From Escherichia coli (lineage in GTDB: Bacteria > Pseudomonadota > Gammaproteobacteria > Enterobacterales > Enterobacteriaceae): 64,000 bases of DNA. How positions within the stretch are numbered: the stretch's first letter is position 1; each line of letters starts with the position of its first letter. The stretch lies in NCBI RefSeq assembly GCF_016026235.1, contig NZ_CP065613.1. One strand, written 5' to 3'. The translations under genes were made by a program, and so were the position numbers. Under the pieces are notes generated by a model. The model was given only the letters and a program-made list of their open reading frames with translations. It did not search any database and was not told the origin of the DNA. This document shows positions 1 through 53,364 of the stretch, piece by piece.

Positions 1-1
1 A

Positions 2-355
2 CACACCAAAGATAAGCTTTCCGGCTCCATCGATGCCAACCGCGACTTTGACGGCAGCGCCACCTCCCAGCAGCAGAACAGTCTGCGCGGGGAGATCACC
101 GTGTCCGTCCACGCGGTGCAGCCCAACGGCATCCTGGAAATTCGCGGCGAAAAATGGCTGACCCTCAACCAGGGCGATGAGTACATCCGTTTAAGCGGCC
201 TTGTGCGCGCCGACGACATCCAGAACGACAACTCGGTTTCCTCCCAGCGGATCGCCGATGCCCGCATCTCCTATGCCGGACGCGGCGCGTTAAGCGACGC
301 CAACGCCGCAGGCTGGCTGACGCGACTGTTTAACCATCCTCTGTTCCCGATTTAA
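2..355 (+). CDS. lfgH: Flagellar L-ring protein (FlgH family), 3' part; 5' end lies upstream of the window
   Basis: Open frame from window edge to TAA at 353-355; translation (…[28 protein letters not shown]…[14 protein letters not shown]) matches FlgH C-terminal region; position directly upstream of a FlgI homolog. Confidence 0.8.
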
Positions 356-369
356 TGCCGGAGAGTGCA

Positions 370-1470
370 ATGCAAAACTGGATAAAGGCCGCCGTTATCG
401 CCGTAAGCCTGGCGCTGCCCGGCGTGGCGCTGGCACAATCGCTGGAGTCGCTGGTCAACGTACAGGGCGTGCGTGAAAACCAACTGGTCGGCTACAGCCT
501 GGTGGTCGGCCTCGACGGCACCGGTGATAAAAACCAGGTCAAATTCACCAACCAGACCATCACCAATATGCTGCGCCAGTTCGGCGTGCAATTGCCGAAT
601 AAAATCGACCCGAAGGTGAAAAACGTCGCCGCAGTGGCGGTGAGCGCCACGTTGCCGCCGATGTACTCGCGCGGGCAGACCATTGATGTCACCGTCTCGT
701 CGATTGGCGATGCGAAAAGTATTCGCGGCGGCACCTTGTTGCTGACCCAGCTTCACGGCGCGGATGGCGAAGTGTATGCCCTGGCGCAGGGCTGCGTGGT
801 GGTCGGCGGGATGAACGCCACCGGGGCCAGCGGTTCCAGCGTGACGGTTAACACACCGACCGCTGGGTTAATTCCCAACGGCGCGACGGTGGAGCGCGAG
901 ATCCCCAGCGATTTTCAGATGGGCGATACCATCACGCTTAACCTGAAACGCCCGTCATTTAAAGACGCCAACAATATTGCGGCGGCGATTAACGCCTCGT
1001 TTGGCGGCATTGCCACGGCGCAGAGTTCCACCAACGTTACCGTGCGCGCGCCCACCAGCCCCGGCGCGCGGGTGGCGTTTATGTCGCAACTGGATGATGT
1101 GCAGGTGCAGGCGGAGAAAATCCGCGCCCGCGTGGTGTTTAACTCGCGTACCGGTACGGTGGTGATGGGCGATGGCGTTGCGCTACATGCGGCGGCGGTG
1201 TCTCACGGCAGTCTGACCGTCTCGATTAACGAAACCAGCAACGTCAGCCAGCCGAATGCCTTTGCGGGCGGGCGCACGGCGGTAACGCCGCAGAGCAATA
1301 TCGCGGTGAATCATGCGCGCCCGGGCGTGGTGAGTTTGCCGGAGTCGAGCAGCCTGAAAACGCTGGTCAATGCGTTGAACAGTTTGGGCGCGACGCCGGA
1401 CGACATTATGTCGATTTTACAGGCGTTGCATGAAGCGGGCGCACTGGATGCTGACCTGGAGGTGATCTGA
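370..1470 (+). CDS. lfgI: Flagellar P-ring protein (FlgI family), Flag-2 type
   Basis: 371-aa ORF with N-terminal signal peptide ([22 protein letters not shown]) and FlgI-like core; GGAGAG SD before ATG at 370; alternative ATG at 355 overlaps lfgH stop. Confidence 0.85.
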
Positions 1471-1769
1471 TGAAAGTTAACGCCAGCGGCGGGATTGACG
1501 GCAGCGATGCGTTAATGGGGCCGAAGGTTCAGGCCAATGATATCAAGCAGGCCGCGGAGCAGTTTGAGGCGATTTTTTTACGCAACATGCTGAAAGAGAT
1601 GCGTAAAACCAACGAGCTGTTTGATTCGAAAGATAACCCGTTTAACAGCGATTCGGTGCGCATGATGCAGGGGTTTTATGACGATGAGCTGTGTAACACC
1701 CTGGCGCAGCAGCACGGGATCGGGATTGCGGCGATGATTGTGAAGCAGTTGTCGCCGAAGCATAAATGA
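1470..1769 (+). CDS. lfgJ: Short FlgJ-like rod-binding protein (N-terminal domain only, no muramidase domain)
   Basis: 99-aa ORF, ATGA overlap with lfgI stop; motif AAEQFEAIFLRNMLKEMRK resembles FlgJ N-terminal rod-binding domain. Confidence 0.75.
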   Translation: MKVNASGGIDGSDALMGPKVQANDIKQAAEQFEAIFLRNMLKEMRKTNELFDSKDNPFNSDSVRMMQGFYDDELCNTLAQQHGIGIAAMIVKQLSPKHK

Positions 1770-1785
1770 GGTTCCGGCGTTCGGC

Positions 1786-2062
1786 GCACGGTGCCTGATG
1801 CGACGCTGACGCGTCTTATCAGGCCTACGAGTCGCCCGTATGTAGGCCGGATAAGGCGTTCACGCCGCATCCGGCATTTGGTGCACGGTGCCTGATGCGA
1901 CGCTGACGCGTCTTATCAGGCCTACGAATCGCCCGTATGTAGGCCGGATAAGGCGTTCACGCCGCATCCGGCATTTGGTGCACGGTGCCTGATGCGACGC
2001 TGACGCGTCTTATCAGGCCTACGAGTCGCCCGTATGTAGGCCGGATAAGGCGTTCACGCCGC
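1786..2062. repeat. Tandem array of three ~97-bp REP/BIME-type palindromic units
   Basis: Unit beginning GTGCCTGATGCGACGCTGACGCGTCTTATCAGGCCTACGA…GTAGGCCGGATAAGGCGTTCACGCCGCATCCGGCA recurs with 97-bp period at 1791, 1888, 1985; copies differ by a single base. Confidence 0.9.
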
Positions 2063-2097
2063 TTTTAACCGGCACGATTTACCGGTAAGGATCCAAC

Positions 2098-3474
2098 ATG
2101 GACATGATTAACATCGGCTACAGCGGCGCATCAACCGCGCAGGTGGAGCTGAACGTCACGGCGCAAAACACCGCCAACGCCATGACCACGGGCTACACCC
2201 GCCAGGTGGCGGAGATCAGCACCATCGGCGCCAGCGGCGGTTCGCCGAACAGCGCCGGTAACGGCGTGCAGGTCGACAGCATTCGCCGCGTCTCTAACCA
2301 GTATCAGGTGAATCAGGTGTGGTATGCCGCCAGCGATTACGGCTATTACAGCACCCAGCAGGAGTATCTCACGCAACTGGAAGCGGTATTGAGCGACGAT
2401 AACAGCAGCCTGAGCGGCGGGTTCGATAACTTCTTCGCCGCCCTTAACGAAGCGACCACCAGCCCTGATGATTCCGCCCTGCGCGAGCAGGTGATCAGCG
2501 AAGCCGGGGCGCTGTCGTTGCGTATCGATAACACACTCGATTACGTCGACTCGCAAAGCACGGAAATCATCAGCCAGCAGCAGGCGATGGTGTCGCAAAT
2601 CAATACGCTCACCAGCGGCATCGCCAGCTATAACAAGCAAATCGCCCAGGCCGAAGCCAACGGTGATAACGCCTCTGCGCTGTACGACGCCCGCGATCAG
2701 ATGGTGGAAGAACTCAGCGGGATGATGGATGTGCAGGTTAATATCTACGACCAGGGCAACTACAACGTCACGCTGAAAAATGGTCAGCCGCTGGTGAGCG
2801 GGCAGCAAAGTTCGACCATCGCGCTGGAAACCAACGCCGATGGCACGCCGACCATGTCGCTGACCTTCGCTGGCACTACCTCGACGATGACCACCGACAC
2901 CGGCGGTTCATTAGGCGCACTGTTTGATTATCAAAACGACGTCCTGACGCCGCTGACCGACACCATCAACAGCATGGCGTCGCAGTTTGCCGATGCGGTC
3001 AACAACCAGCTGGCGCAGGGCTACGATCTCAATGGTAACTCCGGCGAGCCGCTGTTTATCTATGACGCCAGCAACGCCGATGGCCCGCTGACCGTTAACC
3101 CGGTTATCACCGCCGATGAGCTGGCGTTTTCCAGTTCACCGGACGAAAGCGGCAACAGCGACAACCTCCAGGCGCTGATCAACATCTCCACCGAACCGCT
3201 GGAGATCGACAATCTTGGCAGCGTGACGGTCGGGCAGGCGTGCTCGTCAATCATCAGCAATATCGGCATCTACAGTCAGCAAAACCAGACGGAAGTCGAT
3301 GCTGCGTCCAATGTCTATTCCGAAGCGCAAAACCAGCAGAGCAGCGTCAGCGGCGTTAGCATGGACGAAGAAGCGGTGAACCTGATCACCTATCAACAAA
3401 TTTATGAAGCCAATCTGAAAGTCATTTCCGCCGGGGCCGAGATTTTCGATTCGGTGCTGGAAATGTGCAGCTAA
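2098..3474 (+). CDS. lfgK: Flagellar hook-associated protein 1 (FlgK family)
   Basis: 458-aa ORF; FlgK-like N-terminus (MDMINIGYSGASTAQVELNVTAQN…) and C-terminus (…ITYQQIYEANLKVISAGAEIFDSVLEM); AAGGA SD upstream. Confidence 0.85.
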   Translation: MDMINIGYSGASTAQVELNVTAQNTANAMTTGYTRQVAEISTIGASGGSPNSAGNGVQVDSIRRVSNQYQVNQVWYAASDYGYYSTQQEYLTQLEAVLSDDNSSLSGGFDNFFAALNEATTSPDDSALREQVISEAGALSLRIDNTLDYVDSQSTEIISQQQAMVSQINTLTSGIASYNKQIAQAEANGDNASALYDARDQMVEELSGMMDVQVNIYDQGNYNVTLKNGQPLVSGQQSSTIALETNADGTPTMSLTFAGTTSTMTTDTGGSLGALFDYQNDVLTPLTDTINSMASQFADAVNNQLAQGYDLNGNSGEPLFIYDASNADGPLTVNPVITADELAFSSSPDESGNSDNLQALINISTEPLEIDNLGSVTVGQACSSIISNIGIYSQQNQTEVDAASNVYSEAQNQQSSVSGVSMDEEAVNLITYQQIYEANLKVISAGAEIFDSVLEMCS

Positions 3475-3488
3475 GCGGGAGCGCGAAA

Positions 3489-4418
3489 ATGCGAGTAACC
3501 ACCCAACAAACCTACGTCTCGATGACGCAAAGTTTTAATAATCTCTCCGGCGATCTGGCGCACGTGGTCGAGCAGATGGCAACCGGTAAGCAGATTTTGC
3601 AGCCGTCGGATGACCCGATCGCCGCCACGCGCATCACCCAGTTAAACCGCCAGCAGTCGGCGATTGAACAGTATCAGAGCAATATCGACTCCGCGTCGGC
3701 GGGGTTAAGCCAGCAGGAATCGATTCTCGATGGCGTCAACAACAGCCTGCTGGCGGTGCGCGACGACCTACTGGAAGCGGCGAACGGCACCAATACCGCC
3801 GATTCGCTCGCAAGCCTCGGCCAGGATATTGAGACGCTCACCGAATCGATGGTCGCGGCGCTGAACTATCAGGATGAAGACGGGCACTACGTGTTTGGCG
3901 GCACCATCAACGATCAGCCGCCGATTGTGGCAGTGGACGATGATGGCGATGGTGTCACCGACAGCTATAGCTACCAGGGCAACAGCGACCACCGCCAGAC
4001 CACCGTATCGAACGGCGTGGAAGTGGATACCAACGTGGCGGCGAGCGATTTCTTCGGCAGCAATTTAGACGTGCTCAACACGCTCAATTCGCTCTCGCAG
4101 GAGTTGCAAAACCCCAACGTTGACCCGGCAGATCCGCAGGTGCAGAGTGATATTCAGAACGCCGTTGATGTGGTGGACACCGCCTCGGACGACCTCAACG
4201 CCTCGATTGCGTCACTCGGCGAGACGCAGAACACCATGTCGATGTTGAGCGATGCGCAGACCGATATCTCTACCTCTAATGATGAGTTGATTGGTTCATT
4301 ACAGGATCTCGATTACGGCCCGGCGTCGATCACCTTTACCGGACTGGAAGTGGCAATGGAAGCTACCCTCAAGACTTACTCGAAGGTGAGTGAGTTGAAT
4401 TTGTTCAGCGTTCTCTAA
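3489..4418 (+). CDS. lfgL: Flagellar hook-associated protein 3 (FlgL family)
   Basis: ORF 3465-4418; GGGAG SD precedes internal ATG at 3489 (MRVTTQQTYVSMTQ…); flagellin-like N/C termini typical of FlgL. Confidence 0.8.
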   Translation: MRVTTQQTYVSMTQSFNNLSGDLAHVVEQMATGKQILQPSDDPIAATRITQLNRQQSAIEQYQSNIDSASAGLSQQESILDGVNNSLLAVRDDLLEAANGTNTADSLASLGQDIETLTESMVAALNYQDEDGHYVFGGTINDQPPIVAVDDDGDGVTDSYSYQGNSDHRQTTVSNGVEVDTNVAASDFFGSNLDVLNTLNSLSQELQNPNVDPADPQVQSDIQNAVDVVDTASDDLNASIASLGETQNTMSMLSDAQTDISTSNDELIGSLQDLDYGPASITFTGLEVAMEATLKTYSKVSELNLFSVL

Positions 4419-4434
4419 CTCTTTCAGGAACAGT

Positions 4435-5412
4435 ATGCAGGTCGGACTTACTTCTTCGTCACTCGCCACCGGCGGCGCGCACAGCGCTGCGGTATCGTCG
4501 TCAACCGTTGCGCCCACTCAGGCGGTGCGGCAAAAGCTCCCGGTGACGGCGAGTGAATATCCGGCCTCGCCGCTGATTACCACTCGCCCGCAGCGTTACA
4601 GCGTGCAGCTTAACGACCAGCTCACCACGTTGCAGCAGGCGGATCACTACCTCGGGCAACTGGAGCAGCAGTTGCTCGATTATCGTCATAGCCAGCGTAA
4701 GGGCGGGCAGGCGCAGAGTTCGGCGCTGATGCAGATGCTGGACAAACGCACCGCGCTTTCCGGCGGCGCGGTGGACCGCCAGTTACAGCCGGTGTTGCAG
4801 GGTGAAGCGCGGGTGACCTTTCACTCACCAGATCTGGCAAATCTGGTACACAATTCCACGCCGGGAACGCGTATGTTCAGCGTCTCTGACGGGCGACAGA
4901 CGCAGCTTTCGGCGGTAATGCTATCTGATGATGACAACGCCGGGCAGTATCAGACGCGGCTGACCAACGCCCTGCGCCGCGTGGGCGTGCAGCTACATCA
5001 GCAAGCGGATGGCATCAGTTTCTCCACCACTGAAAAACAGTGGCCCCATATCGAGCGCACCTTAAGCGTGCGTACCGATGGCGATAAATCAGCATTTATG
5101 CCGCTGAAAACCTTTGCTGAGCCGTCACAGGCGGACCGCTTAGCGCAAAGCCTGCAACAGGGCGGGGCGGGGATTTCTCAAATGCTGGAAAACATTAATC
5201 AGCAGCGCGCGCAGATGGCGGTGCAGCAGGAAAAAGCCCGCCAATTGATCGACGGCATGTCCCGCTTCCCGCAAACGGAAAATGCGGTGCAGGCATCGGA
5301 AAACCTCGGCGGCGTACTCGACAGCGCCAATCATAACTATCAGGTGTTATTGCAGGCGGTGAACGGCCAGGCGCGAATTTCCAGCCAGACGGTGAGGAAT
5401 TTATTGGGGTAG
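4435..5412 (+). CDS. lafW: Flag-2 locus protein LafW-like (Gln/Ala-rich, uncertain function)
   Basis: 325-aa ORF directly downstream of lfgL with AGGAACAG SD; assignment by position in laf gene order, not by recognisable motif. Confidence 0.55.
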   Translation: MQVGLTSSSLATGGAHSAAVSSSTVAPTQAVRQKLPVTASEYPASPLITTRPQRYSVQLNDQLTTLQQADHYLGQLEQQLLDYRHSQRKGGQAQSSALMQMLDKRTALSGGAVDRQLQPVLQGEARVTFHSPDLANLVHNSTPGTRMFSVSDGRQTQLSAVMLSDDDNAGQYQTRLTNALRRVGVQLHQQADGISFSTTEKQWPHIERTLSVRTDGDKSAFMPLKTFAEPSQADRLAQSLQQGGAGISQMLENINQQRAQMAVQQEKARQLIDGMSRFPQTENAVQASENLGGVLDSANHNYQVLLQAVNGQARISSQTVRNLLG

Positions 5413-5662
5413 GGTTATTGAAAATCAAACAAATGAGGCTGTCGCAAAAAATCATTTCAGTGCAGAATATGCTATAAATCTGCGGGTTAAAAAGGAATGA
5501 AATGGCCACTCTCAAGCAACTGATGGATAAGCAAAGCCCCGAAAGTCGTAGGCGAATAATTAAAAAAACAGAACGAATCCGGCAAACTATAATTAACAAA
5601 AAATTAGAGTTACCAATAACTACAACTATCAGTAATTCCGATTGATTTCATTCGGAATTTTC

Positions 5663-5702
5663 GTAGGCCGGATAAGACGCGTTTAGCGTCGCATCCGGCA
5701 TT
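5663..5702. repeat. REP palindromic unit
   Basis: GTAGGCCGGATAAGACGCGTTTAGCGTCGCATCCGGCA between convergent genes. Confidence 0.8.
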
Positions 5703-5714
5703 TATTAGCGCTCA

Positions 5715-6557
5715 TCAGCATTTCTGCACAGTATTTAACAACTTCTCTAAATTCTGGTACATCGCGCTATTAATATCACTATTCTGCCAGCCTTCCACAT
5801 TAAACGTTAATTGCCAGCTACCATTGCACTGGTTGCGCAGAACAATATCACTTTCCAGTCGGTTGCGAACATATTTATAATAGGTTGTCATTGTCATATT
5901 ATGCGCTGACAATAAATTATCGAGTTTGTCTTTCCCTGGTGCGAGGGTTTGTGAAAGTAACGGTGCGGAATTATTTTCTTTTCCAGAACTAAGATGAAAT
6001 ATTTTTATTCTTGGACTATTAACGGATTCTTTTACCAGCTGCGGGGCGTCAGGTGTATTTTTTAAGTGTGAATAACCCACGGTCGAGCCAATAAATATAA
6101 CAGCCGCGGTCAAGGCTAACCCCATCAGTCCTTTATGTTTTTTTCTAACAGGCACAGGCGGTGTTGTCGAAGATATCTCTTCTGGCGCTGTTTCTTTTAT
6201 CTGGTCGGTAATAATCAGCGCTTCCGCAGGCGATGACTCCGGCAAAGACACATACTCTTTATTGCATAAGTAACCTTTCTTCGGAATTGTTTTAATAATG
6301 TTCTGTTGTTTGCCATCATCGTCGATAGCAACGCGCAACGCATGAATCGCCGTCGGCAGGCTGTTACCGCCGACAATGCGGTTCTTCCATACTTCGGCAC
6401 ATAAATAAGATCGCGATAAAACTACATCGGCATTTTTTGCTAATGTTTCCAGCAAAATAAAATGGTATTCGCCGAGACGACGTGTTTCACCCGTTTCGCA
6501 ATGTATTAAGGCATTAAGCGACGGGTCCATCCGCCAGTTGTTGATAATAATACTCAT
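5715..6557 (-). CDS. lafZ: ToxR/CadC-like transmembrane transcriptional regulator (N-terminal winged-helix OmpR-type DNA-binding domain, one TM segment, periplasmic C-domain)
   Basis: Translation has OmpR/PhoB-type wHTH region (…LETLAKNADVVLSRSYLCAEVWKNRIVGGNSLPTAIHALRVAI…IKTIPKKGYLC) followed by hydrophobic segment GLMGLALTAAVIFIGSTVGY; ORF extends to 6614 but ATG at 6557 (MSIIINN) is the more likely start. Confidence 0.7.
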   Translation of the reverse strand: MSIIINNWRMDPSLNALIHCETGETRRLGEYHFILLETLAKNADVVLSRSYLCAEVWKNRIVGGNSLPTAIHALRVAIDDDGKQQNIIKTIPKKGYLCNKEYVSLPESSPAEALIITDQIKETAPEEISSTTPPVPVRKKHKGLMGLALTAAVIFIGSTVGYSHLKNTPDAPQLVKESVNSPRIKIFHLSSGKENNSAPLLSQTLAPGKDKLDNLLSAHNMTMTTYYKYVRNRLESDIVLRNQCNGSWQLTFNVEGWQNSDINSAMYQNLEKLLNTVQKC

Positions 6558-6970
6558 AGTTGAGTTTACCTTAGCAAGGGATAAATGTTCCTGATAGTGC
6601 TTTGCATAAAGCACAGTCTTATACGTCCCTGAGAAGATGATTTTTCTGCGTGATAATTAATATTTTATGGTAATAGGATTATTCTTAATCACTATATGGC
6701 GTGGAAATGTAACGAAATGACAGGACAGGTACAATAGCCAAATGTGTACTATTTGCAACGCAATGTAAATTTTGGCATCAGTACATTGAGAAGAAAACGC
6801 ATTAATTGATGGTAATCTTAACTATATCAAGCGTTTGATAAAGACATATTTTGATACCTGGCCATGTGGCAGATATTGCTAATAATCTTTTTATCTGAAT
6901 TTAAACTCTGCTTTTTTTTAGCTAAAAGTGGCATCAGATAATACGTAGCGAAAATTTTTTCATAGCGATT

Positions 6971-6997
6971 TTAAGTTTGCTCCTGAGGTGTCGTTTT
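6971..6997 (+). promoter_or_regulatory. Candidate sigma-28 (FliA/LafS-type) promoter upstream of lafA
   Basis: TTAAGTTT (7/8 to TAAAGTTT) -N11- GTCGTTTT (weak match to GCCGATAA), ~45 bp upstream of lafA ATG. Confidence 0.3.
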
Positions 6998-7042
6998 TAC
7001 AGGGTATCGAAACGAAAACGATTAATCCCAAGGAGCAGTATC

Positions 7043-7957
7043 ATGTTATCTATTAACACCAATAACGCCTCAATGGCCGCCGTTAATGCAATCAGCAAAA
7101 GCAGCTCTTCTCTGTCTACATCTATGGAACGCCTGGCGACAGGTAACCGGATTAACTCTTCTGCCGATGACGCCGCAGGCAAACAAATTGCTAACCGTCT
7201 GACTGCACAGTCCAGCGGTATGGGCGTGGCGCTGAGCAACATCAATGATGCCACCGCGATGCTGCAAACCGCTGACAGCATGTTCGACGAAATGTCTGAC
7301 GTGCTGGGCCGTATGAAAGACCTGTCAACTCAGGCAGCGAACGGCACCTACAGCGACGACGATCTGCAGGCGATGCAGGACGAATACGACGAACTGGGTC
7401 AGCAGATGTCTGACATGCTGCAAAATACCACTTACGGCGGTACCAACCTGTTCGGTGTTTCCGGTACCAGCAACACCGGTACTGACGGTCTGTTCCAGAG
7501 CGCGGTAACTTTCCAGGTGGGCGCGGAATCTTCCGACACCATGACCGTGAATATTTCAAGCCAGCTGAATACCCTGGTGACGGATCTTTCTGCTATCAGC
7601 AACTCCTTCAGTGCGGATCAGGCAGACACCACGGGTACTGCAGGCGTGTCTGGCGGTACTGAGCTGACTGCGTCTGGCTCGGCTAACCAGATGATCACCA
7701 GCATTTCTACCGCGATGGATGACGTGTCGCAGATCCAGTCCAAACTGGGTGCGTCTATTAACCGTCTGAACGACACTGCCAACAACCTGACCAGCATGCA
7801 GGACAACACCGAAGTCGCTATCGGTAACATCATGGATACCGACTACGCGACGGAAGCGTCCAACATGACCAAACAGCAGGTGCTGATGCAAACCGGCATC
7901 ACCATGCTGAAACAGTCCAACAGCATGTCCAGCATGGTTTCCAGCCTGCTGCAGTAA
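7043..7957 (+). CDS. lafA: Lateral flagellin
   Basis: 305-aa product with flagellin N-terminus (MLSINTNNASMAAVNAISKSSSSLSTSMERLATGNRINSSADDAAG) and C-terminus (…TKQQVLMQTGITMLKQSNSMSSMVSSLLQ); AAGGAG SD at 7030-7035. Confidence 0.9.
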   Translation: MLSINTNNASMAAVNAISKSSSSLSTSMERLATGNRINSSADDAAGKQIANRLTAQSSGMGVALSNINDATAMLQTADSMFDEMSDVLGRMKDLSTQAANGTYSDDDLQAMQDEYDELGQQMSDMLQNTTYGGTNLFGVSGTSNTGTDGLFQSAVTFQVGAESSDTMTVNISSQLNTLVTDLSAISNSFSADQADTTGTAGVSGGTELTASGSANQMITSISTAMDDVSQIQSKLGASINRLNDTANNLTSMQDNTEVAIGNIMDTDYATEASNMTKQQVLMQTGITMLKQSNSMSSMVSSLLQ

Positions 7958-7960
7958 TGG

Positions 7961-7999
7961 CGGACTTGCCGGATGCGGCGTAAACGCCTTATTCGGCCT
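7961..7999. repeat. REP palindromic unit downstream of lafA
   Basis: GCCGGATGCGGCGTAAACGCCTTATTCGGCCTAC. Confidence 0.75.
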
Positions 8000-8003
8000 A
8001 CGA

Positions 8004-8037
8004 ACAACACCGCCTGCGGGCGGTGTTGTGCTTTCTG
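8004..8037 (+). terminator. Rho-independent terminator after lafA
   Basis: Stem ACAACACCGCC / GGCGGTGTTGT with 4-nt loop, followed by GCTTTCT. Confidence 0.75.
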
Positions 8038-8109
8038 CGGCAGGCTTTTTTCCGCCAGACCGGAAACGCCATTTCCGCCAGTTTTTCAATCTATTGATTA
8101 TTCACATAA

Positions 8110-8137
8110 AAAATATTGGCACGCCTTTTGCCAATAA
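8110..8137 (+). promoter_or_regulatory. Candidate sigma-28-type promoter upstream of lafB
   Basis: GCCAATAA at 8130-8137 (7/8 to -10 consensus GCCGATAA), 27 bp upstream of lafB ATG; -35 match weak. Confidence 0.3.
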
Positions 8138-8163
8138 CCTGACATCGTTACCCGGAGTCATCA

Positions 8164-9480
8164 ATGATCAACCCAAGAACCATTGCGCAAGAAATCGCGT
8201 ATGCGGATGTTGCCACTCAGGCGGCAAACTTGCAGGAAAAGCAAACGGAGCTGGATGCCGAAAGCAGCGGCCTGGACTCGCTCAGCTCAGCGTTGAGCGA
8301 TTTCCAGAGCGCCGTCGACGCGCTGAACAGCGATACCGACGGCCCGGTGACTTTTGCCGCCACCAGCAATAATGACTCGGCGACTGTTTCCGCTAACTCG
8401 CAGGCGCAGGCGGGAAGCTACTCATTTTTCGTTGAGCAACTGGCGCAGGGGCAGCAAACCACGTTCAGTATGGGCGACGACGCCTTTTCCGCCACCGGCA
8501 CTTTTGAACTGACGATGGGCGACAGCACCATGGATATCGATCTGTCTGCGGCAGATCAGAACGGTGACGGCGACGGTTATATCGACGCCAGCGAGCTGGT
8601 GAGCGCGATTAACGACTCCGACGATAATCCGGGCGTTTCAGCGGCACTGGTAAAAACCGACGGCACCACCACGATAATGTTCACCTCGGATAGCACCGGG
8701 GCGCAGAGCGCGTTTTCGGTGAGCGTAACGGGGCATGACGCCAGCAACGATAGCACCAGCGCGCCCGTTGCCACGGATGTTTCCTCAGCCCAGGACGCGA
8801 TTATTCATCTCGGCAGCGCCACGGGGCCAGCCATCACCAACAGCAGCAACACTTTTGATGATGTGATCCCCGGCGTCACCATGACCTTTAGCGAAGTCAG
8901 CGACTCTGACAGCGATCTCACCACCTTTAACATTAGCGAAGATTCCAGCGCCACCGAAGACAAAGTGCAGACCTTTGTCGATGCCTATAACACGCTGATT
9001 GATACCGTCGATTCACTGACCACCAGCGGCAGCGACAGTACCAGCGCCGGGGTTTTTGCCGGAGATGCGGGACTCAGCTCACTGGCAAACCAGCTCGATG
9101 ACATCGCCCACGCCAGCTACAACGGCGAGTCGATTGTCGATTACGGCATTACGCTCGACTCCAATGGCCATTTGCAGATCGACTCTGATCAGTTCAACGA
9201 CGCGATGAAAAGTGACCCTGACGGTCTGACCTCTATTTTCGTTGGCGACAACAGCATGGTGGCGCAGATGGACGACCTGATTAACACCTACACGGACTCC
9301 AGCAACGGCATCATCACCCTGCGCCAGCAGAACATTGACGATCAGATGAGCAAAATTCAGGACGAAGGCGATCAGCTTACCGATACCTATAACGCCAACT
9401 ACGACCGTTATCTCGAGGAGTACACCAACACGCTGGTCGAGGTGTACACCATGAAAGCCAGCATGGCGGCATTCGCGTAA
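8164..9480 (+). CDS. lafB: Flagellar filament cap protein (FliD family)
   Basis: 438-aa ORF following flagellin; Ser/Thr/Asp-rich central region, FliD-like termini. Confidence 0.75.
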   Translation: MINPRTIAQEIAYADVATQAANLQEKQTELDAESSGLDSLSSALSDFQSAVDALNSDTDGPVTFAATSNNDSATVSANSQAQAGSYSFFVEQLAQGQQTTFSMGDDAFSATGTFELTMGDSTMDIDLSAADQNGDGDGYIDASELVSAINDSDDNPGVSAALVKTDGTTTIMFTSDSTGAQSAFSVSVTGHDASNDSTSAPVATDVSSAQDAIIHLGSATGPAITNSSNTFDDVIPGVTMTFSEVSDSDSDLTTFNISEDSSATEDKVQTFVDAYNTLIDTVDSLTTSGSDSTSAGVFAGDAGLSSLANQLDDIAHASYNGESIVDYGITLDSNGHLQIDSDQFNDAMKSDPDGLTSIFVGDNSMVAQMDDLINTYTDSSNGIITLRQQNIDDQMSKIQDEGDQLTDTYNANYDRYLEEYTNTLVEVYTMKASMAAFA

Positions 9481-9502
9481 CTCAGAAGGAATATCCCTAA
9501 AG

Positions 9503-9895
9503 ATGTACCAAGTACAGGACGGCTATTCACAATATAAAGAGATCGATCTCGCGGCGCGTACTGCGGCGGCATCGCCTCTGGAACTGGTGCTGGTGCTGTT
9601 TTCTGGCCTGATGGACGAGCTGGAACGCGCCAAAAGCCATATTGAAGGGCGGCGTTTCGAGAAGAAAGCCCAGAGCATCAATAAATGCATCGACATTCTC
9701 AATGCGCTCACCAGTTCGCTGGAGTTTGAAACTGGCGGCGAGCTGGTGGTCAACCTTTCGCGACTCTATGACCACTGCGTTTACCGATTGTATGAGGCCA
9801 GCGGCGAACTGTCGGCAGAGAAAATCGATGAAGTGATGCTGATCTTAAGCAACCTGCGCGAAGGCTGGGAAGGGCTTTCGGGCAAGCTGGGTTAA
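9503..9895 (+). CDS. lafC: Flagellin export chaperone (FliS family)
   Basis: 130-aa ORF; FliS-like helical protein in expected position. Confidence 0.75.
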   Translation: MYQVQDGYSQYKEIDLAARTAAASPLELVLVLFSGLMDELERAKSHIEGRRFEKKAQSINKCIDILNALTSSLEFETGGELVVNLSRLYDHCVYRLYEASGELSAEKIDEVMLILSNLREGWEGLSGKLG

Positions 9896-9899
9896 GACG

Positions 9900-24677: not shown

Positions 24678-24803
24678 TTTAAATCAAGTAGTTACCCCAT
24701 ATTTAAATACACCACGTTTCCTCCTGTGCCGTATTTGTGCCATTGTAACCCTGGCAATTAATCAAAATACTGTTCTGACATCAGGCAATGCAGGTGCAGA
24801 CAT

Positions 24804-25214
24804 TTAAGCCAATTGCTGCCGCCATTCCTTGACGTGGTCAATCAGGGCGCGGAGCTTTGGTGCAATATTGCGACGCTGTGGGAAATACAGATAGAAGCCC
24901 GGAAATTGTGGAAGAAAGTCATCAAGCAGAGATACAAGCCTACCGCTTTCAATATATGGCCTGAAAGTTTCCTGAGTGGCAATTGTTATTCCTCCGCCGG
25001 CAAGAGCCAGCCTCAACATCAGACGCAGATCATTAGTCGTAATCTGTGGTTCAATCGCAAGGTCGAAAGTTCTCCCGTTTTCTTCAAATGGCCAGCGATA
25101 AGGCGCAACCTCCGGGGACTGACGCCAGCCGATACACTTATGGGTATTTCCCCCGGAGGTGAGAAAGCGCTTTCCACGCCCGGCCGCAAGGATCAGGACG
25201 ACGGGGGCAGGCAT
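24804..25214 (-). pseudogene. yagP: LysR-family regulator, C-terminal fragment only (no HTH domain)
   Basis: 136-aa ORF ending with typical LysR C-terminus (…FPGFYLYFPQRRNIAPKLRALIDHVKEWRQQLA); DNA-binding N-terminal half absent. Confidence 0.7.
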
Positions 25215-26150
25215 GAATCCTCCTCCTGATGGAGACGTACAGAGGCGACTTCTGCCAGCACGGAGAGTGCCAGAGTATGCGCATCCCGGGCTTTGGGGAA
25301 TATCCCGACGGGTGCCCGAATTTGCGCTGTCTCCTCCCTGGACCATCCCAGCTCGTGGAGCTTTTGCAGACGTAACGTGTGGGTTCGATAGCTGCCCAAT
25401 GCGCCGAGATAAAAGGGTTTTGCTTCTCGCGCGGCCTGCAACACTGGCAGCTCCCGGTTGAGATCATGGCACAGCAAAATGACCGCCGTATCGGTATCGA
25501 TCTGAGCGCTGGCTGAGGCCGGAAAAAGATCGAAGATATGGCTGTCATAGCCTGTGGCTGCTGCAAGACTCGCGGTTGCCTGCGCCTCAAGAGAACGTCC
25601 GTAAATCATCAGCCTGACGCATGGCCTGAACCCCACCTCAAAGCCATTGAGATTCCAGCCACGTTCGGGTTTGCGTGGGCAGGCACACCAACGATTGTGC
25701 TTGCGGATCGTAGCGCAGCCCCGCCGGTTTTCTCTGTTCCAGGCGGTTCAGCACGGCGAGCAGAGGCTGTGCCGAGCGTAGTTTATGGAGCGTCAGCGTG
25801 ATCCCACCGCCGCAGGGCAGAACGATGTCAAACCACGGCGAACCTTCGCCATAGCGAATTTCGCGATCGCAGCCTGAGCCCATCATCTCCAGCGCTTCAA
25901 AAGCGGCAGCGGCCTCCACGCAGCCGCCAGAGACAAAACCGCAGTAACGACCATCTTCGCGCACCACCATCTGCGCCCCGAGCGGGCGCGCCGCGCCGCC
26001 GCGTATCTCCACCAGCGTCACCAGCACCGCTCCTTTACCGGACATTAGCGCCTCTACGGCGAAGCGCAGAATGGTCCGGTGGTCATCGGTGAGAAACGCC
26101 TGCTCTGGCTTATGCCAGTGTTCGTCTTTATCAAAAAGCGGGTATGACAT
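25193..26150 (-). pseudogene. paoD: XdhC-family molybdenum-cofactor insertion chaperone, split by a frameshift
   Basis: Two abutting minus-strand ORFs in different frames (26150-25638 N-domain; 25636-25193 C-domain starting RLMIYGRSLEAQ…) that together span an XdhC-like protein. Confidence 0.7.
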
Positions 26151-26159
26151 TGTTCCTCC

Positions 26160-28358
26160 TTAAACCACATCCGGCAGCTTATCGAGCAGCTTATCCAGAG
26201 TGATGGGATAATCGCGTACCCGAATACCGGTGGCGTTATACACCGCGTTGGCGATAGCAGCGCTCACGCCGCACAGGCCCAGCTCACCGACACCTTTGGC
26301 CTTCATCGGGGAGGATATGGGGTCGGTATCATCCAGGAAAATCACCTCCTGTTTTGGGATATCCGCATGGACCGGCACCTCATACCCCGCCATATCGTGA
26401 TTAACGAAGTAGCCCAAACGGTCATCCACCGCCAGCTCCTCCATCAGTGCCGCGCCCATGCCCATAGTCATTGCGCCAATGACCTGGCTGCGTGCAGTTT
26501 TCGGATTCAGGATGCGTCCTGCAGCACACACAGCGAGCATATGCCGGACCCGAACTTCTCCCGTCGCGCTATGCACGCCGACCTCCACAAAATGCCCGGC
26601 AAAGGTCGACTGCTGGTACTCCTTGCTCAGTGTTCCGAATTCAATGCTCTCTTCCGCTGTCAGTCTGCCGCCTGCGGTGGCCTCATGTAGCGTGGCGCTT
26701 CGGGTACCGTTGGTAATCTTGCCGTCGGCAAACTGCGACTGCTCAGGATCAAACCCGACTGCCGAGGCAATCATTTCGCGAAGCTTCACACAGGCGGCGT
26801 AAACGCCGGAGGTGGAGGTATTCGCGCCCCATTGTCCGCCAGAACCCGCAGAAACCGGGAAACTGGAGTCGCCAAGGTGAACCGCAACCTGCTCCAGCGG
26901 TACGCCAAGCATTTCCGCCGCCGTCTGGGCCAGAATGGTGTAGCTGCCGGTGCCAATGTCGGTCATGTCCGTTTCCACGGTAACGGTGCCGTTTTGTTCG
27001 AGGTGAACCCGAGCCCCCGATTTTTCCAGCAGATTATTGCGAAAGCCCGCCGCGACGCCGTGGCCGACTAGCCACTCTCCGTCGCGTACCTGTCCGGGTG
27101 TGGCGTTGCGCTGCTTCCAGCCAAATTTATCCGCTCCGGTGCGCAAGCACTCGATAAGCTGACGGCGAGAGAAGCGGCGCGTCGGGTCGGCGGGGTCAAC
27201 CTGAGTGTCATTCAGGATGCGAAACTCGACGGGATCGATGCCCGCTTTTTCCGCCAGTTCGTCGATCGCGATTTCGAGCGCCATCAGACCGGGGGCTTCG
27301 CCGGGCGCACGCATGGCGTTCCCTTCCGGCAAATCAAGCGTGGCGAGCCGCAGGCCGGTATGACGGTTTGCCCCGGCGTAGAGTAATTCGCTTTGCTGTA
27401 CCGCCGTTTCCGGCGTGCCGCCGAGCAGGTTTCCGGACCAGCTTTCATGTGAGATAGCTGTGATTTTCCCGCTCTGGTCGGCACCGATACGCAGGTGCTG
27501 AAGGGTGGCGGGGCGGTGCGTGGTGTTATTGGGAATAGTGGGGCGGGGGAGCATCACTTTAACCGGACGTTTCACCGCTCGGGCGGCGAGGGCCGCCAGC
27601 AGCGCATCGCTTCTCAGGAACAGCTTGCCGCCAAACCCTCCGCCGATATACGGGGAGATAATACGCACATTCTCCACGGGCACTTTCAGCGTTTTTGCCA
27701 GATCGGTGCGGCACCAGTCAATCATCTGATTTGAGGTCCAGAGAGTAAGCTTATTTCCATCCCAGACGGCCATCGAGGCATGCGGCTCCATCGCCATATG
27801 GCTCTGGTCCGGGGTCGTGTAGGTAGCATCAATCTTCACCGCAGCGGAGGAGAAAGCCCCGTCAAAGTCACCGACGTTTTTGTCGGGCGTGCCTTCCGGC
27901 GGCTGATTGACGGCCTGTTTTTCGTCCGCCAGGGAGTAAGCTCCTTTATTACGGCGATAGTGCGCCTGCACCAGCGAGGCCGCCGCTCGCGCCTGTTCGA
28001 AGGTCTCGGCCACTACCAGCGCAATGGCCTGATGATAGTGCTCAATAGTGGGGCCGCCTAACAGCCTGGCGGTGTTTTTGTCGCCTTTGCCGAGTGCCCC
28101 GGCGTTACTGGCGGTAATGACAGCCAGTACGCCCGGCGCTTTTTGCGCGGCGTCCGTATCAAGGGCGGTGAGGCGTCCTTTGGCAATGGCGGAACCGACG
28201 ATATAGCCATAGGCGGCGTTGGGGGATTCTTCATGCCATTCGTAGGCGTAGCGTGCCGTGCCGGTAGTTTTCAGCGGTCCGTCGATGCGGTCATAGGGAC
28301 GACCGACAACCTTCAGCTGATCGATCGGGTTTTCCCCTGCGGGTTTATCAAATTTCAT
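26160..28358 (-). CDS. paoC: Aldehyde oxidoreductase molybdopterin-binding subunit (xanthine dehydrogenase family)
   Basis: 732-aa ORF with Ald_Xan_dh domains; stop/start overlaps with neighbours. Confidence 0.9.
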
Positions 28359-29311
28359 GCTTGTGCCCTCGCTTCAGCCAGTACGGAGGCAAGCGTTCGC
28401 TTCGCCAACAGGAGTTTAAAGGTGTTTTCAGCGGTGGGATGGGCGCTGGCGAACAGCGCGTCATATACGGCCTGCGCCCCCTGGGATAGCTGAGCATCCG
28501 CAGCCTCAATGCGCCAGGGCTTATGTGCTACTCCGCCCAGCGCGACGCGCCCGCTGCCGTCAGGCTGAATAATCGCCGCGACCGATACCAGGGCAAAGGC
28601 GTAGGAGGCGCGATCGCGCACCTTACGGTAGATATGTTTTCCGCCGAGCGGCGGAGGTAACGTCACCGCAACGATAAGCTCACCGGGAAGCAGGGCGGTT
28701 TCAATGTGCGGCGTTTTCCCCGGTGGGTGATAAAAATCAGCCAGTGTGATACTGCGAGTCTTTCCCTCCGGCGTGATGGTTTCCACCACCGCATCCAGCA
28801 ACCGCATTGCGACCGCCATATCGCTCGGATGGGTGGCAATGCAGGCTTCGCTTACGCCTACCACCGCGTGCTGACGGCTAAAGCCTTCAAGCGCCGCGCA
28901 GCCGCTCCCGGGCAGGCGCTTATTGCAGGGCTGATTGGTGTCGTAAAAATAGGGGCAGCGCGTGCGCTGGAGCAGATTACCTGCGGTGGTTGCCTGATTA
29001 CGTAACTGACCAGACGCGCCAGCGAGCAGGGCGCGGGAGAGTACCGCGTAATCACGACGCACGCGCTCGTGAGCCGCCAGGTCGGTGTTCCGTACCAGTG
29101 CGCCGATGCGCAGCCCACCCGCGTCGGTCACTTCAATCTTATCGAGCCCGAGGCCGTTCACATCGATAAGGTGGGTGGGCGTTTCAATTTCCAGCTTCAT
29201 CAGGTCCAGCAGATTGGTCCCGCCCGCGATAAATTTTGCGCCGGGTACGCGCTGAGCGCTAAGTGCCGCCTCGGCCGGGGTGTTCACTCGTTCATAGGTA
29301 AACGCCTTCAT
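28355..29311 (-). CDS. paoB: Aldehyde oxidoreductase FAD-binding subunit
   Basis: 318-aa FAD-binding CO-dehydrogenase-type ORF (…[14 protein letters not shown]…). Confidence 0.9.
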
Positions 29312-29997
29312 GATTTTATCTCCCCCGCAGCGTCTTCAATGGCGGCAAGGATGTTAGCGTATGCACCACAGCGACAGATGTTGCCGCTCATACGTTCACG
29401 GATCTCATCGGCAGTTCTTTCTGGAGGGGAAACCAAATCGACCGTGACGTGACTGGGAATGCCGTCCTGAATCTCTTTTAGCACCGCTACTGATGAGCAA
29501 ATTTGCCCGGAGGTGCAGTAGCCGCACTGGAAGCCATCATGCTTGATAAAGGCCGCCTGCATGGGGTGAAGATTATCTGGTGAACCCAGGCCTTCAATGG
29601 TGGTGATCTCGGCCCCCTGATGCATGACTGCCAGCGTCAGGCAGGCATTAAGCCTGCGACCATTGACCAGCACGGTACAGGCTCCGCACTGTCCGTGATC
29701 GCAACCTTTCTTGGTACCGATCAAATGCAGATTTTCACGCAAAGCGTCCAGTAGCGTGGTTCGGGTATCCACCTCAAGCTGCTCGGTTTTGCCGTTCACC
29801 TTAAGTGTCAGGGGCATTATCTCTGGCGCGGGTGTAGCTGCCGGAACGCTTGCCGCAAGCGTAGAATGAGGATAAACCACGGCGGTCGCCGCCGTTGCGG
29901 CGCTCACTTTAATCAGATCGCGACGGGTCAAACTTAAATCGTGCGGCTCGTGCTTCCCAACCCGATTATCTTCGGGGTATTCGCCTTGGTTGCTCAT
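29308..29997 (-). CDS. paoA: Aldehyde oxidoreductase 2Fe-2S subunit with Tat signal
   Basis: 229-aa ORF with twin-arginine motif ([18 protein letters not shown]) and two [2Fe-2S] cysteine clusters. Confidence 0.9.
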
Positions 29998-43599: not shown

Positions 43600-44524
43600 A
43601 TGATGAAAATAGAGCCTTCAATTTTGCCTTCTCTTGCCTGGTTTGCGCTGATTGTTCGTGCCGGCAGTTTTTCCAGAGCCGCTTCTGAAATGGGTATTAC
43701 GCGGGCCGCATTGTCCCAGAATTTAAAATCTCTTGAGGAACGTCTTAACACCAAGCTGATATACCGTACGACCCGCAATATGTCGCTTACTGAGGAAGGA
43801 CTGCGTCTGTATGAAGTGCTGGTGTCGGCTTTGGGGCAAATTGATGATGCTTTGAAAGATGTTGGTGATACCCAACTTGAACCTACAGGCCTGTTGAGAA
43901 TAAATTCCTCCCGTGTTGCAGCACGGATGCTTGTTGAGCCTCATATTGGCGAGTTTCTTACTCGTTACCCCAAAACAAAGATAGAACTCATTATGGATGA
44001 CGGTTTATCTAACATTATTGCGGACGGCTGTGATGTGGGCATACGTCTTGAGCAAGGACTGGATGAGCATATGACTGCCGTTCCTGTTTCTCCGCTTATT
44101 AAACTGGTTACTGTGGCATCGCCAGATTATTTAAAAGAACACGGTATTCCTGAAACGCCTCAGGAACTGAGTAACCATAATTGCCTTCGGTTGCGGCATA
44201 AAAGTAGCGGTGCACTCTCTGCATGGGAGTTTTCTAATGTTGCGGGCGGGAATGAAGAGTTCGAAATAGAGGTTTCAGGTAAGTATATTTCTAATGATGA
44301 CGAAAGCATGATACGAATGGCGCTGAATGGAACGGGTATCATTCAACATCTGGATTTTGCAATCGCTGAACATATCAATGCGGCAAGTTACAGCCGATTC
44401 TTGAGGATTGGGCTGTTTCATTTCCTGGGTTTTATATTTATGTTTCATCACGGGTGAGAATGCCCTCTAAAGTTCGTGCTTTTATTGATTTTATGGTGGA
44501 GAAAAGAGTAAAACTCGAAAATTG
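43600..44524 (+). pseudogene. LysR-family transcriptional regulator with a frameshift near the C-terminus
   Basis: HTH start MMKIEPSILPSLAWFALIVRAGSFSRAASEMGIT; the track ORF ends at 44457 in non-LysR sequence, while the canonical LysR C-terminus (GKLQPILEDWAVSFPGFYIYVSS…KVRAFIDFMVEKR) is encoded in another frame from ~44382 to 44524. Confidence 0.7.
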
Positions 44525-48083: not shown

Positions 48084-51000
48084 ATGTCACGTTATAAAAC
48101 AGGTCATAAACAACCACGATTTCGTTATTCAGTTCTGGCCCGCTGCGTGGCGTGGGCAAATATCTCTGTTCAGGTTCTTTTTCCACTCGCTGTCACCTTT
48201 ACCCCAGTAATGGCGGCACGTGCGCAGCATGCGGTTCAGCCACGGTTGAGCATGGGAAATACCATGGTAACTGCTGATAATAATGTGGAGAAAAATGTCG
48301 CGTCGTTTGCCGCAAATGCCGGGACATTTTTAAGCAGTCAGCCAGATAGCGATGCGACACGTAATTTTATTACCGGAATGGCCACCGCTAAAGCTAACCA
48401 GGAAATACAGGAGTGGCTCGGGAAATATGGTACAGCGCGCGTCAAACTGAATGTCGATAAAGATTTCTCGCTGAAGGATTCTTCGCTGGAAATGCTTTAT
48501 CCGATTTATGATACGCCGACAAATATGTTGTTCACTCAGGGGGCAATACATCGTACAGACGATCGTACTCAGTCAAATATTGGTTTTGGCTGGCGTCATT
48601 TTTCAGGAAATGACTGGATGGCGGGGGTGAACACCTTTATCGACCATGATTTATCCCGTAGTCATACCCGCATTGGTGTTGGTGCGGAATACTGGCGCGA
48701 TTATCTGAAACTGAGCGCCAATGGTTATATTCGGGCTTCTGGCTGGAAAAAATCGCCGGATATTGAGGATTATCAGGAACGCCCGGCGAATGGTTGGGAT
48801 ATCCGCGCAGAGGGCTATTTACCTGCCTGGCCGCAGCTTGGCGCAAGCCTGATGTATGAACAGTATTATGGCGATGAAGTCGGGCTGTTTGGTAAAGATA
48901 AGCGCCAGAAAGACCCGCATGCGATTTCTGCCGAGGTGACCTATACGCCAGTGCCTCTTCTGACACTGAGCGCTGGGCATAAGCAGGGCAAGAGCGGTGA
49001 GAATGACACTCGCTTTGGCCTGGAAGTTAACTACCGAATTGGCGAACCTTTGGCGAAACAACTCGATACGGATAGCATTCGCGAGCGTCGGGTACTGGCA
49101 GGCAGCCGCTATGACCTGGTTGAGCGTAATAACAACATCGTTCTTGAGTACCGCAAATCTGAAGTGATCCGTATTGCTCTGCCTGAGCGTATTGAAGGTA
49201 AGGGCGGTCAGACACTTTCCCTCGGGCTTGTGGTCAGCAAAGCAACTCACGGACTGAAAAATGTGCAGTGGGAAGCGCCGTCATTACTGGCTGAAGGTGG
49301 CAAAATTACCGGTCAGGGTAGTCAGTGGCAAGTAACGCTCCCGGCTTATCGTCCAGGCAAAGACAATTATTATGCGATTTCTGCGGTTGCCTACGATAAC
49401 AAAGGCAATACCTCAAAACGCGTGCAGACAGAGGTGGTCATTACCGGAGCTGGTATGAGCGCCGATCGCACGGCGTTAACGCTTGACGGTCAGAGCCGTA
49501 TTCAAATGCTTGCTAACGGTAATGAGCAAAAACCGCTGGTGCTGTCTCTGCGCGACGCCGAGGGCCAGCCAGTCACGGGCATGAAAGATCAGATCAAGAC
49601 TGAACTAACTTTCAAACCGGCTGGAAATATTGTGACTCGTTCCCTGAAGGCCACTAAATCACAGGCAAAGCCAACACTGGGTGAGTTCACCGAAACTGAA
49701 GCAGGGGTGTATCAGTCTGTCTTTACTACCGGAACGCAGTCAGGTGAGGCAACGATTACTGTTAGCGTTGATGGCATGAGCAAAACCGTCACTGCAGAAC
49801 TGCGGGCCACGATGATGGATGTGGCAAACTCCACCCTGAGCGCTAACGAGCCGTCAGGTGACGTGGTTGCTGATGGTCAGCAAGCCTATACGTTGACGTT
49901 GACTGCGGTGGACTCCGAGGGTAATCCGGTGACGGGAGAAGCCAGCCGCTTGCGATTTGTTCCGCAAGACACTAATGGTGTAACCGTTGGTGCCATTTCG
50001 GAAATAAAACCAGGCGTTTACAGCGCCACGGTTTCTTCGACCCGTGCCGGAAACGTTGTTGTGCGTGCTTTCAGCGAGCAGTATCAGCTGGGCACATTAC
50101 AACAAACGCTGAAGTTTGTTGCCGGGCCGCTTGATGCAGCACATTCGTCCATCACCCTGAATCCTGATAAACCGGTGGTTGGGGGTACAGTTACGGCAAT
50201 CTGGACGGTAAAAGATGCCTATGACAACCCTGTGACCAGCCTCACGCCGGAAGCGCCGTCATTAGCGGGTGCCGCTGCTGAAGGTTCTACGGCATCGGGC
50301 TGGACAAATAATGGTGATGGGACGTGGACTGCGCAGATTACTCTCGGCTCTACGGCGGGTGAATTAGAAGTTATGCCGAAGCTAAATGGACAGAATGCGG
50401 CAGCAAATGCGGCAAAAGTAACCGTGGTGGCTGATGCGTTATCTTCAAACCAGTCGAAAGTCTCTGTCGCAGAAGACCACGTAAAAGCCGGCGAAAGCAC
50501 AACCGTGACGCTGGTGGCGAAAGATGCGCATGGCAACGCTATCAGTGGTCTTGCGTTGTCGGCAAGTTTGACGGGGACCGCCTCTGAAGGGGCGACCGTT
50601 TCCAGTTGGACCGAAAAAGGTGACGGTTCCTATGTTGCTACGTTGACTACAGGCGGAAAGACGGGCGAGCTTCGCGTCATGCCGCTCTTCAACGGCCAGC
50701 CAGCAGCCACCGAAGCCGCGCAGTTGACGGTCATCGCTGGGGAGATGTCATCAGCGAACTCTACGCTTGTTGCGGACAATAAGGCTCCGACCGTCAAAAC
50801 GACGACGGAACTCACCTTCACCGTGAAGGATGCGTACGGGAACCCGGTCACCGGGCTGAAGCCAGATGCACCAGTGTTTAGCGGTGCCGCCAGCACGGGG
50901 AGTGAGCGTCCTTCAGCAGGAAACTGGACAGAGAAAGGTAATGGGGTCTACGTGGCGACCTTAACGCTGGGATCTGCCGCGGGTCAGTTGTCTGTGATGC

Positions 51001-52340: not shown

Positions 52341-52479
52341 TTTGAATAGTATGAAAGTTACGATCTAATAAAGAATAATGGTGTTGAAATATTCAACGCC
52401 ATTATTCACTGAATACCTTGCCTGATACTGATTAAATAGTATCAGGCAAGGATAAAACTCAATAAGAGATAGTGACCAA

Positions 52480-53364
52480 CTAAACCGGACGAACGGGAAT
52501 AAAAATTTCGCAAACAACATCATTGCCATCCTTTTCTACGAAATCTTCATTGTAATAAAAGCGCTCAATATCGCTGCCGTTCACTCTGGCTAACCCCCTG
52601 GCAGGCAACTCTATCAGATAGATGTTACGCACCCAGTCAGGATAATTTTCCCAGTTTCCTTCATAACGGAAAGAGGCATAAAGTCCTCGGGTCGTTGTCC
52701 ACTCTTTTGGCATGTCAGCATATTCACATACCGTACCAGCAAAAGTTTCAACCGTGAGCAAATCGACCGATTTTGTTGACGGTTCAAACGTGGAGACGAA
52801 ATAGATATCCGTCTTATAATTCTTCATACATCTGGCTAAATGATGACGTCGTAGTTTGACTTCTTCATCCGGTGATTTATTCGACACCTCAATGTCATAT
52901 TTAAATGAGTTGCCAAAAATAGGTGTCTCAGGAAAGTTGACTAATCGACACTCCGTCTTTTGCTGTTGACGTATTAAAAAAGAAGGGAAGATATTTGCGA
53001 GATCCCAATAATCACGGTGGCGGTATTCACGGGGAGAGCAGCCGAATAACTTTTTAAATTCGCGGCTGAATGACTGCTGTGAATCAAAATGCAAAGAGAG
53101 TGCAATATCAAGCATAGATTTCGCGGTGAGCCGGACAAGAATGGCGGCACGGCAAAGCCTTCGTTTGCGAATGTATTCTCCCAAAGGCACATGCATGAAA
53201 TTTCGGAACAGAAGCTGGATGTTGCGTCTGCTGTAGCCAGATTTCTGTGCGATATCTTCGATTGAAATAGGGTGCTCAAGATTGCACTCAATCCACTCCA
53301 GGAGCTGCTGTAGAATCTTCTGCCTGATCATCACATTCTCCATTAATTCTTCGTCATATCGCAC
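52480..53364 (-). CDS. ykgA: AraC-family transcriptional regulator with C-terminal effector-binding domain
   Basis: 294-aa ORF with AraC HTH region near N-terminus (…IAQKSGYSRRNIQLLFRNF…). Confidence 0.75.
   Translation of the reverse strand: MRYDEELMENVMIRQKILQQLLEWIECNLEHPISIEDIAQKSGYSRRNIQLLFRNFMHVPLGEYIRKRRLCRAAILVRLTAKSMLDIALSLHFDSQQSFSREFKKLFGCSPREYRHRDYWDLANIFPSFLIRQQQKTECRLVNFPETPIFGNSFKYDIEVSNKSPDEEVKLRRHHLARCMKNYKTDIYFVSTFEPSTKSVDLLTVETFAGTVCEYADMPKEWTTTRGLYASFRYEGNWENYPDWVRNIYLIELPARGLARVNGSDIERFYYNEDFVEKDGNDVVCEIFIPVRPV

Follow-up and report, generated by a model that had tools for sequence, protein, structure and literature searches.

A probably inherited single-base insertion splits paoD, the cofactor chaperone gene of the paoABCD operon, in a lineage of Escherichia coli

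The window considered here, by which we mean the whole 64,000-nucleotide stretch of E. coli DNA that was analysed, carries the pao genes on its minus strand, with paoD represented by two open reading frames (ORFs) in place of one. The features on which the argument turns are as follows.

29308..29997, minus strand: paoA, 2x[2Fe-2S] subunit with the twin-arginine signal TRRDLIK, 229 aa, intact
28355..29311, minus strand: paoB, FAD-binding subunit, 318 aa, intact
26160..28358, minus strand: paoC, molybdenum-binding subunit, 732 aa, intact (single frame, no gaps versus the reference)
25193..26150, minus strand: paoD, read as a pseudogene; 958 nt, that is, the native 957 nt plus one inserted base
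25638..26150, minus strand: N-terminal ORF, 170 aa, made up of native residues 1-163 and seven aberrant ones (WLESQWL), followed by TGA
25661, minus (gene) strand: the lesion, an inserted T as first base of codon 164, ACG[T]GGC
25637..25643, minus strand: premature stop CTT TGA G, with a CUU UGA shifty-stop core as in RF2 (prfB)
25193..25636, minus strand: C-terminal ORF, 147 aa, GTG start, carrying the Rossmann-like XdhC_C domain
24804..25214, minus strand: downstream remnant, a fusion between the start of a MocA-like nucleotidyltransferase gene and the C-terminal portion of a LysR-type regulator

paoA, paoB and paoC lie immediately upstream of paoD on the same strand, the setting that characterizes a paoD of the XdhC/PaoD family. 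A first-pass annotation of the window, made from the letters alone, had judged the three structural genes intact, and each is indeed full length in one frame; its identification of the split gene as paoD is borne out by a RefSeq paoD match and by Pfam domains. We also recover the two ORFs that it described, an N-terminal one running from 26150 to a TGA ending at 25638 and a C-terminal one continuing from 25636, which occupy adjacent frames with GTG 25636 one base past the TGA. Using Pfam gathering scores as cutoffs, the 170-codon ORF matches PF02625 (XdhC_CoxI; 73.1 bits against a cutoff of 24.3, residues 35-101) and the 147-codon ORF matches PF13478 (XdhC_C; 76.4 bits against a cutoff of 29.7). 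Counted from GTG 25636, the C-terminal ORF corresponds to native residues 172-318, while gene callers start it at ATG 25609, giving 138 aa. Both frames had been described as open around 25640-25690, and the C-terminal frame in fact remains open upstream to at least 25720. A tblastn comparison with the reference returned an HSP for the N-terminal half of paoD only; the C-terminal half was confirmed by direct translation and alignment.

Members of the XdhC/PaoD family carry both domains on one chain of ~305-320 residues, and this allele encodes no such chain. Judged from its reading frames, the window's paoD would be a pseudogene of the family rather than a functional member. For the intact protein, the equivalog model NF045664 (XdhC family aldehyde oxidoreductase maturation factor) gives 76.4 bits, below its cutoff of 350, which would place PaoD outside that equivalog and within the wider XdhC family only.

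On the downstream side, positions 25137-25214 of the remnant correspond to codons 1-26 of a MocA-like nucleotidyltransferase gene (PF12804) and share 85% identity with the fifth gene in the pao cluster of Leclercia. The remnant (24804-25214) is common to E. coli in general, and the E. coli RefSeq records examined label it a LysR pseudogene that is incomplete; an operon-linked cytidylyltransferase gene kept by relatives thus seems to be lost from E. coli. Further features of the window are worth recording in their own right. A lateral-flagella (Flag-2 type) cluster on the plus strand (1-14279, flgH to lafU, including lafA, fliD, fliS and motA) appears intact: flgH is truncated by the start of the window, and the genes listed are all full length in one frame, bar an 88-aa hypothetical that matches from residue 21. 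Within it, at 1773-2062 between the rod-binding-protein gene and flgK, the reference matches at several offsets 97 bases apart, which indicates a tandem repeat of ~97 bp, seemingly of different copy number in different strains. At 16175-16706 (plus strand), rtcB codons 1-69 and prfH codons 105-204 are what is left by comparison with strain AHM8C212RI, which points to a deletion that joined both genes. At 48084-53331, fdeC and a neighbouring helix-turn-helix gene have only ~93% amino-acid identity to the nearest genome, with many small indels in the 3' part of fdeC and the spacer, so that this region is far more divergent than the remaining window. Finally, a 500-codon ORF at 62427-63929 (minus strand) ends in an autotransporter beta-barrel, adjoins ykgH and heads toward the end of the window; 1,542 complete genomes that share this arrangement annotate it as hyxB, whereas the nearest overall relative has betA at this place.

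To return to paoD, the lesion was mapped by aligning the gene with the intact paoD of strains EC14 and BL21(DE3), an alignment of the kind that the first-pass annotation had proposed as a check. Over 1,021 aligned columns the sole length difference from either strain is the T at 25661 (an A on the plus strand), and a BLAST gap listing, independent of the alignment, gives the same position. The earlier expectation of a single-base indel somewhere within 25640-25690 is thereby narrowed to one nucleotide. Otherwise the 1,021-nt stretch is 100% identical to EC14, whose RefSeq paoD (WP_021577022.1) is named 'molybdenum cofactor insertion chaperone PaoD', and this identity outside a single base argues that the split is a matter of homology, not chance. 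The insertion changes residues 164-170 from GWNLNGF to WLESQWL, after which TGA follows. Homopolymer slippage as the origin of the extra base is ruled out by its context, ACG[T]GGC.

What does codon 164 contribute to the protein? Intact PaoD was modelled with AlphaFold on an alignment of 37 ortholog sequences (mean pLDDT 88, pTM 0.84). A Foldseek search with this model finds the solved XdhC-family structures 2WE8, 2WE7 and 3ON5 (E 1e-21 to 5e-19, TM 0.63-0.69), and the intact sequence itself matches 2WE7 with E 4e-26; the XdhC-family fold is thus modelled for the intact allele, not for the window's broken one. Residues 164-166 and 169-174 form a beta-hairpin in this model (pLDDT 93-95) that runs directly into the first Rossmann-like strand (179-183). 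Across the aligned orthologs conservation exceeds 90% at T163 and at W165, and glycine is the consensus at position 164. The first-pass annotation had put the frameshift in an inter-domain linker. This holds insofar as the site lies between the two Pfam domains, but the model suggests that the lesion sits at the domain junction within an ordered, conserved element rather than in a flexible linker. Each of the 35 intact orthologs in the alignment is a single polypeptide of ~304-321 aa (a 36th alignment row, P0052, is a frameshifted E. coli variant in its own right). Among the homologues listed that have both domains, these always lie on one polypeptide, and those listed with a single domain are truncated or fused forms from E. 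coli, with at least 90% identity.

We propose the following account. paoD, the final gene of paoABCD, would carry a vertically inherited +1-base insertion at codon 164, so that translation would run through seven wrong codons into TGA and release a 170-residue fragment that has no Rossmann-like domain, while the C-terminal half has no ribosome-binding site of its own. PaoD is essential for sulfurating the molybdopterin cytosine dinucleotide (MCD) cofactor and for inserting it into PaoABC (PMC3909100, PMC2997495), and paoABC expressed without paoD yields protein that is inactive, unstable and devoid of MCD (PMC2997495; PMC3909100). Since PaoD is needed for cofactor sulfuration and insertion into PaoC, the lineage would be left without PaoABC activity: only inactive, unstable apo-PaoABC would be made, and periplasmic aromatic-aldehyde oxidation would be lost. 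Given the lesion and what has been published on the need for PaoD, this lineage has most likely lost PaoD function and, with it, PaoABC activity, and we hold the account as a whole, a genuine inherited paoD insertion with PaoD lost and PaoABC probably inactive, with good confidence. One qualification concerns YqeB, the second XdhC-family protein of E. coli, which has been proposed to be a general chaperone (PMC2997495) and might stand in for PaoD.

There are several scenarios in which the allele would nevertheless yield active chaperone. In the first, paoD would be a leaky pseudogene: the tRNA-Leu on CUU would slip by +1 to UUU at CUU UGA, as it does in prfB, and produce a trace of 318-aa PaoD, and this small amount of protein, altered from GWNLNGF to WLESQWL, might be sufficient in the case of a chaperone. 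The heptamer CTT TGA G falls exactly at the premature stop (CTT TGA itself occupies 25643-25638), CUU UGA is described as the part of the RF2 frameshift site that matters most (bioRxiv 10.64898/2026.01.08.698412), and an in-silico +1 slip at the stop gives a full-length product that is native except for seven residues, 164-170, with TWLESQWLEVGFRPCVR as its junction peptide. The site therefore resembles that of RF2 in its core and in that the +1 frame leads into a functional downstream part of the protein. It differs from the RF2 site in everything else that was compared. No SD-like element is found in the 18 nt upstream of CUU, where the best anti-SD pairing reaches -3.3 kcal/mol versus -10.6 kcal/mol for prfB, and in Pseudomonas weakening of the SD alone sharply reduces RF2 output. 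The prfB-type spacer UAU/UCU and the C after the stop are both absent, their places being taken by TGG (UGG in the message) and by a G after TGA. Moreover, G164 and the conserved W165, both in the ordered hairpin, are among the residues replaced. Nor is the stop site conserved: the in-frame stop is made by the insertion and is missing from 3,597 complete genomes, so that the motif is a by-product of a lineage-specific event and its likeness to the prfB site a resemblance only. A conserved programmed frameshift is rejected, the allele being lineage-specific and the stimulatory elements missing. Taking these points together, we regard trace production of PaoD by slippage as improbable, and the extension that an RF2-level-dependent slip keeps some PaoABC active, which would explain why paoABC is intact, as quite improbable too.

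A second scenario dispenses with slippage. Here the C-terminal half would be re-initiated at GTG 25636, and the two fragments would associate into an active chaperone, a functional split protein. The single nucleotide between TGA and GTG is a geometry that fits termination-reinitiation, and the loss or change would be confined to native residues 164-171. Against this, SD pairing is essentially absent at both restart codons (-3.3 kcal/mol at GTG 25636 and -2.6 kcal/mol at ATG 25609, compared with -12.1 kcal/mol at the native paoD start), the missing residues are those of the ordered hairpin with its conserved tryptophan, and all two-domain homologues listed are single polypeptides. PaoD is, in addition, an unstable and aggregation-prone protein even when whole (PMC3909100). 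We consider a working split chaperone very improbable, and loss of PaoD function remains the reading that we carry forward.

Both scenarios, like the account that we prefer, presuppose that the extra base is real. When positions 24700-26300 were searched by megablast, the locus was found, annotated paoD, in 3,608 of 5,426 complete E. coli genomes, and every top match, at 1,600 bases, falls one short of the 1,601-base query. An 81-nt query spanning the site matches 3,597 complete E. coli genomes, at best over 80 of 81 positions, and the insertion is present in none of them. The exact 170-aa product does occur elsewhere in public data: at least 24 contigs encode it, each from a separate sequencing run (SRR11606891, ERR926423, SRR13627093 and SRR17652784 among them), and both ORFs of the allele are already deposited as separate NCBI proteins, STL99534.1 for the 170-aa product (on a 4.56-Mb contig) and STL99537.1 for the C-terminal piece. 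At four of these carrier loci (of at least 24) the 81-nt site is identical, and relative to the window the same four loci have 0, 3, 1 and 1 substitutions, at differing positions, which suggests that at least four distinguishable haplotypes have the insertion in common. Because carriers combine an identical site with different private SNPs, the insertion behaves as an inherited lineage marker. Some carrier runs could re-sequence one strain; for at least three, private SNPs argue otherwise. A full-text literature search on six carrier run accessions found no papers.

The surroundings of the lesion tell the same story. Relative to the nearest complete genome, no gap besides that at 25661 is found in the flanking 17.3 kb, and ~57 of the 61 reference genes inside the window are intact (full length, one frame), so the assembly is not indel-noisy. 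The nearest complete RefSeq E. coli genome is no closer than ~99.1% over 24 kb. A second frameshift lies elsewhere in the window, in a LysR-family regulator gene on the plus strand (43600-44522). There a 1-base deletion (GGG to GG) at ~44382 puts the last ~50 codons into a changed frame and gives a product of 285 aa versus 308; none of the 2,105 complete E. coli genomes with this segment has it, whereas the exact 285-aa product is present on at least 24 independent public assemblies. It is a second real frameshift in the 64 kb that is missing from complete genomes.

Might the insertion nonetheless be spurious? The NCBI entries of both paoD halves bear ST-series accessions, which we take to be typical of long-read NCTC assemblies; such assemblies often contain indel errors, and further ST/SQ-series PaoD entries are frameshifted too. 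That a long-read source of this type added a base to a truly intact paoD is hardly credible all the same, given an identical product and site in at least 24 independently assembled runs with private SNPs, a non-homopolymer context, flanks free of further gaps, and a LysR-gene frameshift, likewise unique, that independent assemblies confirm. The first-pass annotation had left a sequencing error open, a caveat now largely closed by the recurrence of the same product and 81-nt site in independent assemblies; as far as assemblies allow one to judge, the paoD insertion appears to be a true mutation that has been passed down within one E. coli lineage.

How does this allele relate to other versions of the gene? 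It shares with intact E. coli PaoD its locus, its place after paoABC and, bar one base, the DNA sequence of EC14; it differs from it in that the frame is broken at codon 164 and no single polypeptide holds both domains. Other inactivated paoD alleles exist in E. coli, namely a product that ends after residue 151 (10 contigs; P0003), a 167-aa product on a complete chromosome (P0009) and 448-aa PaoD-LysR fusion products. They are like the window's allele in that a truncated or fused PaoD is encoded beside an otherwise normal pao locus, but they differ from it in position and type of mutation, which makes them independent events. In yet another E. coli lineage (L013, GCA_907172715.1, positions 400-620) paoD was inactivated independently, with TGG changed to TGA at codon 12 (W12) and, in addition, 5 bp deleted from the GCGGCGGCGCGGCG stretch around codon 52. 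The operon as a whole is dispensable, seeing that paoD, and likewise paoC, occurs in only ~3,600 of the 5,426 complete E. coli genomes; about one third of complete genomes do not have it.

The structural genes of the lineage, meanwhile, bear no signs of decay. As paoD closes the operon, no polar effect on paoABC is expected. Among carriers paoC varies at only three SNPs, two of them nonsynonymous and one synonymous, a number too small to bear on relaxed selection. Either PaoD was lost recently, or the structural genes retain some use.

In sum, the window's paoD is a real frameshift pseudogene, specific to one lineage and of an ordinary kind, and the gene concerned is well characterised. For annotation of the lineage, paoD should be marked as a pseudogene, which is of little import beyond strain level, and the insertion together with the LysR-gene deletion at ~44382 offers a clean lineage marker. 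The accidental CUU UGA is of mild interest as a natural test of +1 frameshifting from a bare shifty stop. More broadly, the allele is one more case of recurrent decay in an operon that is missing from a third of complete E. coli genomes, and members of the lineage would be expected to show weaker detoxification of aromatic aldehydes such as vanillin and cinnamaldehyde at low pH.
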